Numbered from the stretch's first letter, positions 2,174 to 11,673 are shown. The stretch: DNA of 64,000 nucleotides from GCF_054482595.1 NZ_CM137008.1, one strand, 5' to 3'. Notes: generated by a model from the letters alone, not told the origin. Translations and numbers: made by a program.

Positions 2174-2241
2174 AAACTCGGCCTCGCAACAAAGTTAATA
2201 CAAGGTAGGCAAAGGTGCCTGTTACGAGTAGAGGAGGATTC

Positions 2242-4503
2242 TCAATTCTCTTGCCCCAGCGCCTGCGCCAACTGCGCACGGGTAAAGGGTTTGCGCAACA
2301 GCGCCACGTCTGGCAGCGCGGGGTTATGGCTGGGGCGTAAATCCTGACCGCTGATGAGTAGCAGCGTCAGGTGCGGGTAAAGTTTGCGGGCCGCATTGAC
2401 CACTTCTGCGCCGCTCATGCCGCCGGGGAGCATTAAATCGCTGATAAAAATATCGATTTCTGCTGATGCCGCCAGCAGATCCAGCGCCTGTTCGCCGCTG
2501 CTTGCTTCCAGCGTCAAATAGCCCAGCAGGTGCAACTGTTCGCAGATGGTCTGGCGCACCGCGGCTTCATCTTCCAGCACTAACACCAGTTTATCGCCGC
2601 TGACAGAAGCCTGTTCTACTGCCGCTGGCGATAGGTTTTTCGCCGCCGTCAGCGCGCGGGGAAGCTGTAATCTGACCGTTGTCCCCTGCCCCGGCGCGCT
2701 TTCAATTTCAACGCGCCCACCGGACTGGCGCACAAAACCATAGACCATCGACAAACCCAGCCCGCTGCCGCTGCCCGTCTGTTTGGTGGTAAAGAATGGC
2801 TCAAATACCTGGCTTTTCACCGCCTGCGACATACCGCTGCCATGATCGATGACCTCCAGTGCCACCATGTCCTGACGCTGCCCACTGCTGCGAGTAACGC
2901 GCTGATTCCAGGTACGAATTTTGATGATTCCCGTCTGCCCTTCCATCGCGTCACGGGCGTTCATCACCAGGTTGATGATGGCATTTTCCAGTTGGCTGAC
3001 GTCAATCCACGCGGGCCACGCCGGAGACTGCGCTTCAATCTCCAGCGCCAGCGTTGCCGGTAAGGAGTGGCGCATTAATTCGCTTAACTCTTCCAGCAAT
3101 GTTTTCAGTTCAACGGCTTGCGGATGTAAGGACTGCTTGCGGGAAAACGCCAGCAGTCGTTGTGTCAGTAGCGCCCCACGTTCGGCAGCTTGCAGCGCCC
3201 GCTGTATTCGCGGCGCGTCTGGCGAGTCCGGATTCACCAGCTCCAGGCTGCCAATAATCACCGCCAGCAGATTATTAAAATCATGGGCCAGCCCGCCCGT
3301 CAGTTGCCCGACCGCTTTCAGTTTCTGGCTGTGTAATAGCGCCTCTTCCAACCCCTGCCGCTCAGTTTGGGCAATCTCCATCTGCGTGGTCTTCTCTTTT
3401 AGCAGCCGTGAGGTTCGTTCGAGTGACTCGGTATTGCGGGCAAAAACGTTAAAGGCGCGCGCCAGTTCACCCAACTCATCACGCCGCTGTAACGCCGGAA
3501 AAGTGACGTCCGCTTCGCCGTACGCCAGGCGGCTCATGGCGCGGGAAATCGCCGTCAGGTTAGTGCCGAGGTTGCGATAGATATACCAGCCGGCAAACGC
3601 GGTGATCACCACCGCTAACAGGGCGAAAATCATGATCACCCTCTCGCCGGAGCGCAAATCCTGGTAACTTTGCGCCACGCGCTGACCGGAGAGCGTCGCC
3701 ACCTGTTCGGCGTAACGGTTGATGTCGCCATTGAGGATCGCCACCAGCGCTTTGATGTGAAACATATACCAGCTGATTGCCAGATCGCTTTGCTCCAGAG
3801 CGGCAGAAAGCGGCGCGAGTTTACGCATTTCATCATTGAAATCATTGAGTAACGTATTAACCAATGGCATATCGCTGTGGGTCGGCAACGCAGACATTAC
3901 CCCGACCAGTTGATGAATAATCGCCTGCGGCGCGGGGGTGGCAATAGCGGCAACAATCAGTCGGTTCATCTCGTTAAGCAAAATATCATCTTGCGCGTGA
4001 GTGACTTTTTGCAGATGCCGCAGATAACTTAAGTTTTGATACAGCGAACTTAACAGCGCGTTGCGCTCCAGATGCCGCCTTTGCCCGCGCTCCAGCATAC
4101 CGCCGACGCTGGTTTGCAGTTCGTTGCTACGCGTGATGATTCGCGTCACCAGCCCGGCTTCCTGCTGCGCTAAAGGCGCGTTCGCCAGTTGTGCAAGCGA
4201 GCTTTTTAATGCCCGCTGTGTCTCCTGCAACCGCTCGGCTTCGCCTTTATATTCCAGCGCTCCCACCACCTGCGACAATCGCACCGCCGCCGTTGCCACG
4301 TTTGCCGTGTCGCGCGCCAGATTCAGGCTGCCGGTCATATCATCCACCGTTTGCTGCTGCACCAGCTCCTGCATCTGGCTGGCATGACGAAAGCCCATTA
4401 CCGCCACGCCGCTGACCATCAACGTCACCGCCACCACCAGCAAATTCAAAAGCAGCAATCGCCCGCGCGCGCTGGCAAAAAAATGACGTCCGGGGTGCGC
4501 CAT
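2242..4503 (-). CDS. Hybrid sensor histidine kinase: two TM helices flanking a ~300 aa periplasmic domain, HAMP, HisKA, HATPase_c, C-terminal receiver
   Basis: H-box LAHDFNNLLAVIIGSLEL, N-box NLVMNARDAM, G-boxes DHGSGM and GSGLGL, receiver motif DIFISDLMLPGGMSG. Start placed at ATG 4503 (GGAG SD upstream); the longer ORF-track start at 4680 would overlap the divergent ABC gene. Confidence 0.85.
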   Translation of the reverse strand: MAHPGRHFFASARGRLLLLNLLVVAVTLMVSGVAVMGFRHASQMQELVQQQTVDDMTGSLNLARDTANVATAAVRLSQVVGALEYKGEAERLQETQRALKSSLAQLANAPLAQQEAGLVTRIITRSNELQTSVGGMLERGQRRHLERNALLSSLYQNLSYLRHLQKVTHAQDDILLNEMNRLIVAAIATPAPQAIIHQLVGVMSALPTHSDMPLVNTLLNDFNDEMRKLAPLSAALEQSDLAISWYMFHIKALVAILNGDINRYAEQVATLSGQRVAQSYQDLRSGERVIMIFALLAVVITAFAGWYIYRNLGTNLTAISRAMSRLAYGEADVTFPALQRRDELGELARAFNVFARNTESLERTSRLLKEKTTQMEIAQTERQGLEEALLHSQKLKAVGQLTGGLAHDFNNLLAVIIGSLELVNPDSPDAPRIQRALQAAERGALLTQRLLAFSRKQSLHPQAVELKTLLEELSELMRHSLPATLALEIEAQSPAWPAWIDVSQLENAIINLVMNARDAMEGQTGIIKIRTWNQRVTRSSGQRQDMVALEVIDHGSGMSQAVKSQVFEPFFTTKQTGSGSGLGLSMVYGFVRQSGGRVEIESAPGQGTTVRLQLPRALTAAKNLSPAAVEQASVSGDKLVLVLEDEAAVRQTICEQLHLLGYLTLEASSGEQALDLLAASAEIDIFISDLMLPGGMSGAEVVNAARKLYPHLTLLLISGQDLRPSHNPALPDVALLRKPFTRAQLAQALGQEN

Positions 4504-4616
4504 ATCACGCTCCGTGAAGAAAAATCGCAATATGACAAATATGAACGGCTTCTGACATTTTGCATTTACTTTCCTGTGATGGAGTGCTGATATCGACAAC
4601 CTCGCAGGAGTCCACC
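4504..4616. promoter_or_regulatory. Divergent control region between the sensor kinase gene and the ABC transporter operon
   Basis: 113-bp gap between divergent start codons; contains direct repeat ATATGA-caa-ATATGA (4530-4544) and an AGGAG SD before ATG 4617. Confidence 0.4.
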
Positions 4617-10679: not shown

Positions 10680-11383
10680 TGCACGTCGGCAGCGAAGACA
10701 TACCCCAGACCGCGCAGAGTTTTAATCAACATCGGCTGATGCGGGTTGAGTTCGATTTTGCGTCGTAAGCGCATGATTAATACGTCGATGGTGCGATCAA
10801 ACACCTCCACGCTGTCGCTGTGGGTGAACGCCAGCAACTGCTCGCGGCTCAATACCCGACGCGCGTTTTGCGCCAGAGCCAGTAACAAGCCATATTCGCC
10901 CTGAGTTAACTCGACATGTTGCTGAAGCGGATTGTGCAACTGGCAGCGCATGGTATCGAGATACCAGCCATTGAATGACAGCCCGGCGCTTTTCTCGTCA
11001 TTAACCGCCAGCGCACCAACCCGTCGCAACACCGCTTTCAGTCGTGCGACCACCACCCGCGGGGTGAACGGTTTGCAGATGTAATCATCCGCGCCCATTT
11101 CCAGCCCGACCACCACATCAGACTCACTGCCCATGCCGGTCAACATCACCACCGGCAATGTCGGACGCAGTTTCTGGATTTGCTGCAATACCCTCAGGCC
11201 GTTGGTATCGGGTAGCATCATATCCAGCACCACCAGCGCAATGTCAGGATCGCCCTCAATACGCAATATGGCCTCCTGTCCGGTATGGCAGACTGAAACC
11301 GTAAAGACATGTTCACTTAACACGTCCTGCAACAGTGCGCAGATAGCCGTGTCATCATCCACCACCAGCACGACGGGTTTCAT
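10676..11383 (-). CDS. OmpR/PhoB-family response regulator (receiver + winged-helix DNA-binding domain)
   Basis: Receiver motifs VLVVDDD and LDMMLPDTNG, winged-helix C-terminus (LRGLGYVF); start at ATG 11383 with GGAG SD (ORF track starts 18 nt upstream); stop codon overlaps the kinase stop. Confidence 0.85.
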   Translation of the reverse strand: MKPVVLVVDDDTAICALLQDVLSEHVFTVSVCHTGQEAILRIEGDPDIALVVLDMMLPDTNGLRVLQQIQKLRPTLPVVMLTGMGSESDVVVGLEMGADDYICKPFTPRVVVARLKAVLRRVGALAVNDEKSAGLSFNGWYLDTMRCQLHNPLQQHVELTQGEYGLLLALAQNARRVLSREQLLAFTHSDSVEVFDRTIDVLIMRLRRKIELNPHQPMLIKTLRGLGYVFAADVH

Positions 11384-11673
11384 GGTTACACTCCGCATCA
11401 TTCATCTGATTAATCATTGTGCGTACTTCTTGTCGAAGTGAAAGCTGAAAGTAATATAAATAATAAAAATATAAGTCAGGTCACATTATTGATGATAGTA
11501 ATAAATATGCCGTACTTTTCCCTCTTCAGCACAAATGCCTAATAAAATGGATCGTTCCGCTCACACTTCCACTTATTAAAGTCGCAATTTCCCAATTATG
11601 ATAACGCCAGCTTTAAATGACGTATTTTGCATGGATTACATATTTACGACATAAATGATAAATGGAGATTTAT

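Follow-up and report, generated by a model that had tools for sequence, protein, structure and literature searches.

An escN-negative Escherichia coli lineage carries a sugar transport and two-component locus matching O-island 167 at the als/rpiB position

The eight genes between yjdP and yjcS in the 64-kb window, i.e., the whole stretch of DNA that was analysed (64,000 nucleotides), are the published O-island 167 (OI-167) locus, lmvK(rbfS)-lmuXYZ-lmuI-lmuA-lmuK-lmvR(rbfR), with a probability of roughly 0.9. The O157:H7 counterparts are ECs_5067-5074 in strain Sakai and Z5684-Z5692 in EDL933. The window and OI-167 have the same eight genes, arranged and oriented alike and inserted between yjdP and yjcS, and they share the LmvR operator; the encoded proteins are near-identical to those of Sakai: LmvR shows no differences, LmvK has five substitutions and a 3-aa gap, and the others differ by one to three substitutions. 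The O157 allele of LmvK carries a 3-residue NDF insertion in the sensor domain that the window LmvK lacks. The first-pass annotation had likened the interval to the O157:H7 cluster around Z5688 and described a two-component-regulated sugar ABC transporter with an isomerase, an aldolase and a kinase; both statements hold, the gene set being that of OI-167. Its further claim that only the isomerase had been characterised, leaving the system functionally undescribed, is incorrect. Papers in PNAS (2022) and mBio (2023) characterised the OI-167 system, and a review followed in 2024 (PMC9860305, PMC10128022, PMC11644481); the two-component system was described as RbfS/RbfR in 2022 (PMC9860305), and the review equated the lmv and rbf names (PMC11644481). 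The locus, regulator, operator and sugar phenotypes are thus already published, and the locus is ordinary apart from its host strain, which lacks the virulence machinery said to be under its control. The features of the interval and its flanks, with positions counted from the first letter of the window, are as follows:

1844-2173, minus strand: yjdP, left flank (annotation of identical record; 93.6% amino acid identity to K-12 YjdP)
2228-2245, minus strand: conserved 18-nt motif TTGAGAATCCTCCTCTAC, overlapping the stop of lmvK and roughly 50 nt ahead of the yjdP ATG
2242-4503, minus strand: lmvK/rbfS, hybrid sensor histidine kinase, 753 aa (Pfam; near-identical to Sakai ECs_5074)
4530-4544, plus strand: LmvR binding site ATATGACAAATATGA between the divergent genes lmvK and lmuX, in the lmuX promoter (match to published footprint repeat)
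4617-6137, plus strand: lmuX, CUT2-family sugar ABC ATPase with two ATP-binding cassettes (NCBIfam; 1 aa difference from Sakai)
6134-7108, plus strand: lmuY, ABC permease (NCBIfam, RbsC-like; 3 aa differences from Sakai)
7127-8068, plus strand: lmuZ, periplasmic sugar-binding protein (PDB 4RWE, E = 4e-167)
8123-8806, plus strand: lmuI, cupin-type D-lyxose/D-mannose isomerase, Z5688 (NCBIfam NF051472; PDB 3KMH/3MPB)
8821-9681, plus strand: lmuA, class II ketose-bisphosphate aldolase (NCBIfam NF005284)
9678-10679, plus strand: lmuK, PfkB/ribokinase-family sugar kinase (weak NCBIfam and PDB matches only)
10676-11383, minus strand: lmvR/rbfR, OmpR/PhoB-family response regulator (identical to Sakai ECs_5067)
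11384-11452, no strand: lmvR upstream region and right junction (K-12 homology from 11453)
11674-13659, plus strand: yjcS, right flank (annotation; 99.2% amino acid identity to K-12 YjcS)

The ORF listing and the RefSeq annotation of the 100%-identical record NZ_CP019359.1 place eight genes between yjdP and yjcS, where K-12 has rpiB-alsRBACEK, confirming together with the K-12 comparison that eight genes replace rpiB-alsR-alsBACEK, as had been annotated. By BLASTN, homology to K-12 is lost at position 2151, approximately 22 nt into yjdP from its 5' end, and resumes at 11453, approximately 50 nt past the K-12 alsK stop; the non-homologous segment is therefore 2152-11452 (9.3 kb), and the diverged or exchanged DNA includes the first ~22 nt of yjdP together with its upstream region. 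The originally delimited interval, 2174-11673, is right as the full gap from yjdP to yjcS but does not coincide with the non-homologous segment itself. BLASTN against K-12 found no rpiB or als genes or remnants inside the interval, leaving only distant ABC paralogy: LmuX, LmuY and LmuZ share 41%, 38% and 30% amino acid identity with AlsA, AlsC and AlsB, respectively. Hence the statement that none of the eight resembles Als or RpiB proteins stands for RpiB, AlsR, AlsE and AlsK, which have no relative here, but not for the three transport proteins. The 18-nt motif is single-copy in the window; in an alignment of seven sequences from six genera, it directly follows the stop codon of either lmvK or rpiB, and in Enterobacter L011 it lies 8 nt downstream of the lmvK stop.

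LmvK comprises TM1, a helical periplasmic domain, TM2 and, by Pfam, HAMP, HisKA, HATPase_c and a Response_reg receiver, with no HPt domain detected after the receiver. LmvR matches OmpR, VirG and TorR in NCBIfam, each under its cut-off. Within the lmuX promoter, the published LmvR footprint covers the repeat ATATGA-N3-ATATGA, at -41 to -62 (PMC10128022). An exact copy of this repeat lies 73 nt upstream of the lmuX ATG, at 4530-4544, and is the only match with one mismatch or fewer in the 64 kb; a search of the whole window for a second operator, including the region upstream of lmvR, returned only degenerate matches with two to three mismatches. In EDL933, D-lyxose and D-mannose induce the operon via LmvK and LmvR (PMC10128022), and in LEE-positive strains ler is also activated by LmvR. 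Since the window hardly differs from the characterised system in its proteins and operator, the LmvK/LmvR sugar circuit should operate in the window as it does in O157:H7: D-lyxose or D-mannose would signal through LmvK to LmvR, LmvR would act at the ATATGA-N3-ATATGA repeat of the lmuX promoter to turn on the operon, and D-xylulose derived from lyxose would enter the pentose phosphate pathway via the host XylB.

The natural signal of this system is disputed, with riboflavin proposed by one study (PMC9860305) and mannose plus lyxose by another (PMC10128022). Riboflavin increased transcription of rbfS/rbfR and made purified RbfS autophosphorylate more strongly, and rbfSR was required for LEE induction (PMC9860305), which favours the kinase being a riboflavin sensor (RbfS) with incidental sugar genes as neighbours. 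However, the only perfect LmvR operator in the window is that driving the sugar operon, which lyxose and mannose turn on via this kinase and regulator (PMC10128022), the cluster is conserved as one unit with transporter and isomerase across ~10 genera, and the interval holds no riboflavin-related gene. We therefore regard a dedicated riboflavin sensor as improbable.

Structure prediction bears on how LmvK might perceive its signal. A sequence profile of the sensor domain gave no match against the PDB even at E = 10. The predicted model (pLDDT 83) forms a double four-helix bundle, and its top Foldseek match is the TorS sensor 3I9Y, with a TM-score of 0.72 when target-normalised and 0.56 when query-normalised, at a borderline E of 1e-3; McpS and PilJ score near TorS, and the TorS-TorT complexes 3O1H, 3O1I and 3O1J are among the top matches. 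The modelled fold gives no hint of a flavin site, which is not evidence against one. TorT docks on TorS, as does ChvE on VirA. By analogy, sugar-loaded LmuZ may dock on the TorS-like periplasmic domain of LmvK, such that the kinase itself binds no sugar and LmuZ serves both transport and signalling. Beyond the resemblance of the model to TorS, this arrangement would fit the absence of a dedicated TorT-like gene from the interval, the conservation of LmuZ across genera (86-97% amino acid identity, among the highest, compared to 61-83% for the kinase), and NCBIfam results in which the kinase falls close to TorS and VirA-like kinases, the regulator falls close to TorR and VirG, and LmuZ weakly matches TorT, although none of these matches attains its cut-off. 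Against it, McpS, which shares the fold with PilJ, binds small ligands directly, and purified RbfS answered riboflavin without any binding protein (PMC9860305). The predicted TorS/McpS/PilJ-like fold does not separate direct sensing from sensing via a binding protein, and we consider LmuZ docking a possibility of some substance that is nevertheless somewhat unlikely.

The transport and catabolic proteins were compared with curated families. The best NCBIfam matches of LmuX are AraG, XylG and RbsA, all under their equivalog cut-offs (AraG, 559 vs 689 bits), whereas LmuY is RbsC-like (270 bits vs a cut-off of 398) and LmuZ is RbsB-like (149 bits vs 337). No lmuXYZ score reaches the NCBIfam equivalog cut-off of the named CUT2 importers AraFGH, RbsABC, XylFGH or AlsBAC; by these profiles, LmuXYZ is assigned to the CUT2 family and is not an equivalog of any named transporter. 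LmuZ is 95-97% identical at the amino acid level to its Citrobacter and Leclercia orthologues. LmuI matches NF051472 over its full length (438 bits vs an equivalog cut-off of 350) and the structures 3KMH and 3MPB with E = 4e-160, the former over residues 1-227. LmuA is a predicted aldolase, with a full-length match to NF005284 (575 bits vs a curated cut-off of 406) and PDB relatives that include class II FBA, KbaY and YdjI. The last of these enzymes cleaves a ketose 1-phosphate. In O157:H7, LmuI acts reversibly on two pairs of sugars, D-lyxose/D-xylulose and D-mannose/D-fructose; its reported Km for mannose is poor, at 19.8 mM. Growth of EDL933 on D-lyxose requires LmuXYZ and LmuI, while LmuK, which has fructokinase activity and phosphorylates fructose, and LmuA are dispensable (PMC10128022).

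Such dispensability raises the alternative that D-lyxose and D-mannose are side activities, and that isomerase, kinase and aldolase together break down another aldose via a ketose phosphate into DHAP and an aldehyde, by analogy with the rhamnose, fucose and YdjH/YdjI pathways. In nature, lyxose is a rare sugar. Growth on mannose barely benefits from the island, being unaffected unless lmvR is overexpressed in a manA mutant (PMC10128022), and the high Km of LmuI for mannose points the same way. Conversely, the two-component system, transporter and isomerase are retained without lmuA or lmuK in Cedecea and Acerihabitans, indicating that the core module works without these two genes; the Lmu transporter is ~60% identical to a mannose ABC system, and glucose, ribose, arabinose and xylose gave no phenotype (PMC10128022), with no wider sugar screen mentioned in the accessible portion of that paper. 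We consider this alternative rather unlikely. All the same, given that growth on D-lyxose does not depend on LmuA or LmuK, the sugar used physiologically may be something other than lyxose or mannose.

To survey carriers, complete genomes were searched with a chimeric lmvK+escN query at megablast sensitivity. The query matched 1107 places in 770 genomes, with at most two places per genome, which yields 337 genomes with both genes. Thus, 337 of the ~410 lmvK carriers also contain escN and ~73 do not, where LEE absence is judged from this one marker gene at megablast sensitivity. The window is 100% identical to the urine isolate XH990; this strain and all 15 of the listed genomes with a window-identical lmvK segment show one place only and no escN. 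The escN-negative carriers have genomes of 4.7-5.2 Mb and originate from humans (urine), poultry, pigs and water. The primary papers call the system restricted to EHEC O157:H7, O145:H28 and O55:H7 and coupled to LEE (PMC9860305, PMC10128022). The XH990-type and other escN-negative carriers contradict this published distribution, though not the identity of the locus.

These data also bear on the view that OI-167 is an EHEC-specific, laterally acquired virulence island that senses a gut signal and switches on LEE type III secretion. It draws on the reported ler activation, colonisation phenotypes and serotype restriction (PMC9860305, PMC10128022, PMC11644481), and on the escN-positive majority of carriers. 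We nonetheless find it highly improbable given the escN-negative carriers and the complete orthologous clusters found at the same chromosomal position in non-pathogenic Citrobacter, Leclercia and Enterobacter, and complete also in Serratia. Together, these two observations argue that LEE control is a lineage-specific co-option that cannot apply to the window. As the window lineage lacks LEE (by escN), we infer that the island would serve sugar catabolism only in that lineage.

Synteny in other genera suggests an older origin for this catabolic locus. The full cluster adjoins fdhF in Citrobacter, Leclercia and Enterobacter; its neighbour on the other side is yjdP/phnP in the first two genera and phnP in the third. 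In Cedecea and a soil MAG, the cluster stands in tandem with alsK..alsR-rpiB. Given these neighbours, lmu is probably an ancestral, syntenic catabolic locus of several enterobacterial genera. Within E. coli, an alsK+lmvK query found 3792 places in 3790 genomes, none of them joined, and als and lmu did not co-occur, in tandem or otherwise, in any of 5426 genomes; in this species they are mutually exclusive alleles. The locus between fdhF and phnP is most probably an old Enterobacteriaceae locus with three alternative alleles (als, lmu and neither), which homologous recombination in the flanks has moved among lineages of E. coli, rather than a foreign mobile island. A weak similarity between the junction of the "neither" allele and the lmvR upstream region, with 8 of 500 shuffles reaching the observed score, offers only a hint.

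The interval and its junctions contain no tRNA, no direct repeat pairing the two junctions and no match to Rfam or structured RNA, and neither the ORF listing nor the annotation includes an integrase or IS ORF. GC content is 50-60%, like that of the flanks. A site-specifically integrated or mobile-element island was rejected given this lack of integrase, IS, tRNA, paired repeats and deviating composition. Against the O157 and O145 copies, the island shows 99.3-99.6% identity, compared to 92-97% for the flanks; this contrast and the lack of any mobility signature are consistent with exchange by flank recombination. The first-pass annotation had likewise noted no integrase, IS, tRNA or direct repeat at the junctions and had suggested replacement by recombination in the flanks.

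A composite account would combine several of these elements: an ancient sugar locus, once in tandem with als-rpiB, whose kinase reads sugar-loaded LmuZ via a TorS-like sensor and whose aldolase and kinase serve another rare sugar, with LEE control and the riboflavin response in O157 as late, lineage-specific add-ons. Taken as a whole, this account is doubtful.

As a discovery, the locus carries no weight, since its regulator, operator and sugar phenotypes were already described; the added value is small and corrective. What goes beyond the published papers are the escN-negative carriers, the cross-genus synteny with the als tandem, and the als-lmu exclusivity. In the literature, the two-component system figures as a hallmark that the most virulent EHEC serotypes gained by lateral transfer, and its further spread is flagged as a threat, yet it is already present in ~70 E. 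coli genomes judged LEE-negative by escN, from humans, poultry, pigs and water. This reframes LEE control as the co-option of a metabolic regulator, and LEE-negative carriers such as XH990 would provide clean backgrounds for the disputed signal, riboflavin or sugar.

The locus can be set against several known systems. Whereas the O157 OI-167 resides in a LEE-containing host, the host lineage of the window lacks LEE, as judged by escN. The lmu clusters of Citrobacter, Leclercia, Enterobacter, Pseudescherichia, Serratia and Cedecea share genes and order with the window, at 61-97% amino acid identity across genera and 78-97% to two Citrobacter copies; in contrast to these, E. coli has an insertion of yjcS-ytcA-mdtNOP that separates fdhF from lmvR, and some other genera keep als-rpiB in tandem or lack lmuA and lmuK. 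The K-12 als/rpiB locus occupies the same slot between yjdP and yjcS and likewise encodes a CUT2 ABC importer, whose proteins are 30-41% identical paralogues of LmuXYZ, and catabolic enzymes for a rare aldose. It differs in being regulated by the RpiR-type repressor AlsR rather than a two-component system, and in having an epimerase, a ROK kinase and RpiB in place of the cupin isomerase, PfkB kinase and class II aldolase. The TorS/TorT/TorR and VirA/ChvE/VirG systems resemble the lmu locus in their hybrid kinase with a long, all-helical periplasmic domain, which in the LmvK model superposes on the TorS sensor, and in having a partner regulator of the OmpR family; the locus also encodes a binding protein of the RbsB family. 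Unlike these systems, the lmu locus has no separate, non-transport binding protein and its similarity falls under every curated cut-off, and LmvK lacks the HPt domain that TorS has.

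Eight other genes, as the first-pass annotation had described, occupy the yjdP-yjcS interval that rpiB-alsR-alsBACEK fill in K-12 MG1655:

within 1-16000, + strand, phnN-phnO-phnP (left flank; ORF calls, annotation)
1844-2173, - strand, yjdP
2242-4503, - strand, hybrid histidine kinase (lmvK)
4617-6137, + strand, ABC ATPase (lmuX)
6134-7108, + strand, permease (lmuY)
7127-8068, + strand, periplasmic binding protein (lmuZ)
8123-8806, + strand, isomerase (lmuI), 227 aa
8821-9681, + strand, class II aldolase (lmuA)
9678-10679, + strand, PfkB-family kinase (lmuK)
10676-11383, - strand, OmpR-type response regulator (lmvR)
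11674-13659, + strand, yjcS, followed by ytcA and mdtNOP

Alignment to K-12 with BLASTN and MAFFT, the check proposed for fixing the exact junctions, showed that homology ends at window position 2151, within yjdP and ~22 nt from its 5' end, and resumes at 11453, ~50 nt beyond the stop codon of K-12 alsK. No tRNA was found around the island, no direct repeat pairing both junctions, and no integrase or IS among the island ORFs, in agreement with the reported lack of a mobility signature; the island likewise contains no Rfam family and its GC content is similar to that of the flanks. The statement that none of the eight proteins resembles Als or RpiB was too broad, as distant paralogy links LmuX to AlsA (41% identity), LmuY to AlsC (38%), and LmuZ to AlsB (30%). 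Over 11 kb, the window is 100% identical to E. coli XH990 (human urine, China; genome 4.88 Mb). The most divergent part of the flank is 1500-2000, spanning the phnP-yjdP intergenic region and the 3' end of yjdP, with 82-92% identity to other E. coli. Here, a 36-51 nt segment at ~1770-1820 is inverted relative to other genomes (BLASTN), which suggests a small invertible or palindromic element.

The island is real and its genomic reading was largely right, though the system had been characterised before. Liu et al. (PNAS 2022; PMC9860305) described Z5692 and Z5684, within "OI-167," as RbfS and RbfR, a two-component system that responds to riboflavin and activates ler. Yang et al. (mBio 2023; PMC10128022) named the genes lmvK, lmuXYZ, lmuI, lmuA, lmuK, and lmvR; growth on D-lyxose was impaired by loss of lmvK, lmvR, lmuI, or lmuZYX, whereas lmuK and lmuA were dispensable. 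Both lyxose and mannose switch the operon on via LmvK and LmvR, LmuK phosphorylates fructose, and the LmvR footprint on the lmuX promoter covers the repeat ATATGA-N3-ATATGA between -41 and -62 (PMC10128022). RbfSR and LmvKR are treated as one and the same system in a 2024 review (PMC11644481), and the signal is disputed between riboflavin (PMC9860305) and sugar (PMC10128022). These reports contradict the earlier view that only the isomerase had been characterised, and the finding is therefore not novel.

Sequence comparison confirmed that the window island belongs to this published system. The layout is the same as in Sakai ECs_5067-5074; LmvR is identical and the other proteins, LmvK apart, differ by 1-3 residues. 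An exact copy of the published operator, ATATGACAAATATGA, lies 73 nt ahead of the lmuX ATG (4530-4544) and is the sole match with at most one mismatch in the 64-kb window. The isomerase exceeds the NCBI curated equivalog cut-off for D-lyxose/D-mannose isomerase (438 versus 350 bits) and matches the solved O157:H7 enzyme 3KMH/3MPB (E = 4e-160), while the aldolase exceeds that for ketose 1,6-bisphosphate aldolase (575 versus 406 bits). The transporter proteins are CUT2-family members that score below every named equivalog cut-off, and LmuZ is almost identical to PDB 4RWE. LmvK contains HAMP, HisKA, HATPase, and receiver domains; the domain search found no HPt domain. Compared to Sakai ECs_5074, window LmvK has five substitutions and lacks a three-residue tandem insertion, NDF, in the periplasmic sensor domain (site at lmvK codons ~219-220). 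Because this insertion is also absent from orthologues of other genera, the experimentally studied O157 sensor is, by this comparison, a derived form.

The published range of the system is limited to O157:H7, O145:H28, and O55:H7 (PMC9860305, PMC10128022, PMC11644481). In contrast, we found the full-length island in 410 of 5426 complete E. coli genomes, with 15 carrying it 100% as in the window (4.7-5.2 Mb; human, chicken, pig, duck [O157:H16], and environmental). An ISVsa5 (IS4-like) transposase interrupts it in E. coli F9792 (NZ_CP024273.1). Association with the LEE was tested using a chimeric query of lmvK and Sakai escN, which matched 1107 places in 770 genomes, at most two per genome; hence, 337 genomes contain both genes and ~73 lmvK carriers lack escN. 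Among the matches listed, XH990 and every genome with the window-identical lmvK segment had a single place, i.e., lmvK without escN. On this gene content, LEE output would be impossible for the window locus, which must work as a catabolic system.

Within the 5426 complete genomes, a query joining alsK and lmvK matched 3792 places in 3790 genomes, none of them joined; the als and lmu clusters are mutually exclusive in E. coli. Roughly 62% of genomes carry als and 7.6% lmu, while 30% have neither cluster and retain only a truncated rpiB (105 aa; e.g., E. coli WP3-W18-ESBL-08). The junction of this allele (locus 12695-13045 in WP3-W18-ESBL-08) weakly resembles the lmvR upstream region (window 11384-11452; score reached by 8 of 500 shuffles), a likeness not found in K-12, which hints that the allele derives by deletion from an ancestor that carried lmu or the tandem. 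The window island is 99.3-99.6% identical to the O157 and O145 copies, whereas the flanks are 92-97% identical. The O145:H28 left junction differs from those of the window and O157: RM12761 has ~250 bp extra between yjdP and lmvK (locus 2145-2348), including a GNAT acetyltransferase pseudogene fragment. Bird isolates carry more divergent lmu alleles (~96.5% identity). In one of these, pigeon isolate PT62, nearly all of the phn operon has been lost and yjdN is directly followed by phnO (locus 1161-2077).

An LmvK scan of one genome per species, followed by tblastn, recovered the full cluster in conserved order in two Citrobacter species, Leclercia, Enterobacter, Pseudescherichia, "Escherichia sp. 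ESNIH1," an Enterobacteriaceae isolate, Serratia plymuthica, and a soil MAG. Cedecea neteri and Acerihabitans arboris retain the two-component system, transporter, and isomerase without lmuA and lmuK, which matches the published dispensability of these genes for lyxose growth. The cluster is flanked by fdhF on one side in Citrobacter, Leclercia, and Enterobacter, and on the other by yjdP and phnP (Citrobacter, Leclercia) or phnP (Enterobacter); the sole difference in E. coli is an extra yjcS-ytcA-mdtNOP block. In C. neteri and the soil MAG (loci 3000-20000), the lmu cluster lies in tandem with alsK..alsR-rpiB, with lmvK and alsK abutting convergently, and in the MAG this arrangement lies between fdhF and phnP. 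Such a tandem may be the ancestral source of the E. coli alleles. Together, the shared synteny, tandem copies, als-lmu exclusivity, and contrast between island and flank identity support exchange through flank recombination, as first proposed, and point to a syntenic locus of long standing that was lost differentially, rather than to a foreign island. The survey corrects the published "EHEC-only, laterally acquired" narrative, and the analysis adds testable points on sensing and substrate.

An 18-nt motif, TTGAGA(A/T)TCCTCC(G/T)CTAC, precedes the yjdP start by ~50 nt (window 2228-2245, - strand). It overlaps the stop codon of lmvK in the window and of rpiB in K-12, follows the lmvK stop by 8 nt in Enterobacter, and is kept in seven aligned sequences from six genera whatever the gene upstream. 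The motif had no Rfam match and is probably a regulatory or promoter element of yjdP.

We modelled the N-terminal 300 residues of LmvK with AlphaFold, using 10 orthologues. The predicted sensor is all-helical (pLDDT 83), with the Vibrio TorS sensor 3I9Y as its top Foldseek match (target-normalised TM 0.72; borderline E of 1e-3) and TorS-TorT complexes, McpS, and PilJ also among the top matches. As TorS senses through a binding protein and McpS by binding its ligands itself, the fold alone does not decide the mode of sensing. LmuZ ranks with the best-conserved proteins of the cluster (86-97% amino acid identity across genera, versus 61-83% for the kinase). It is plausible that LmuZ serves as the signal partner of LmvK, by analogy with ChvE/VirA or TorT/TorS.
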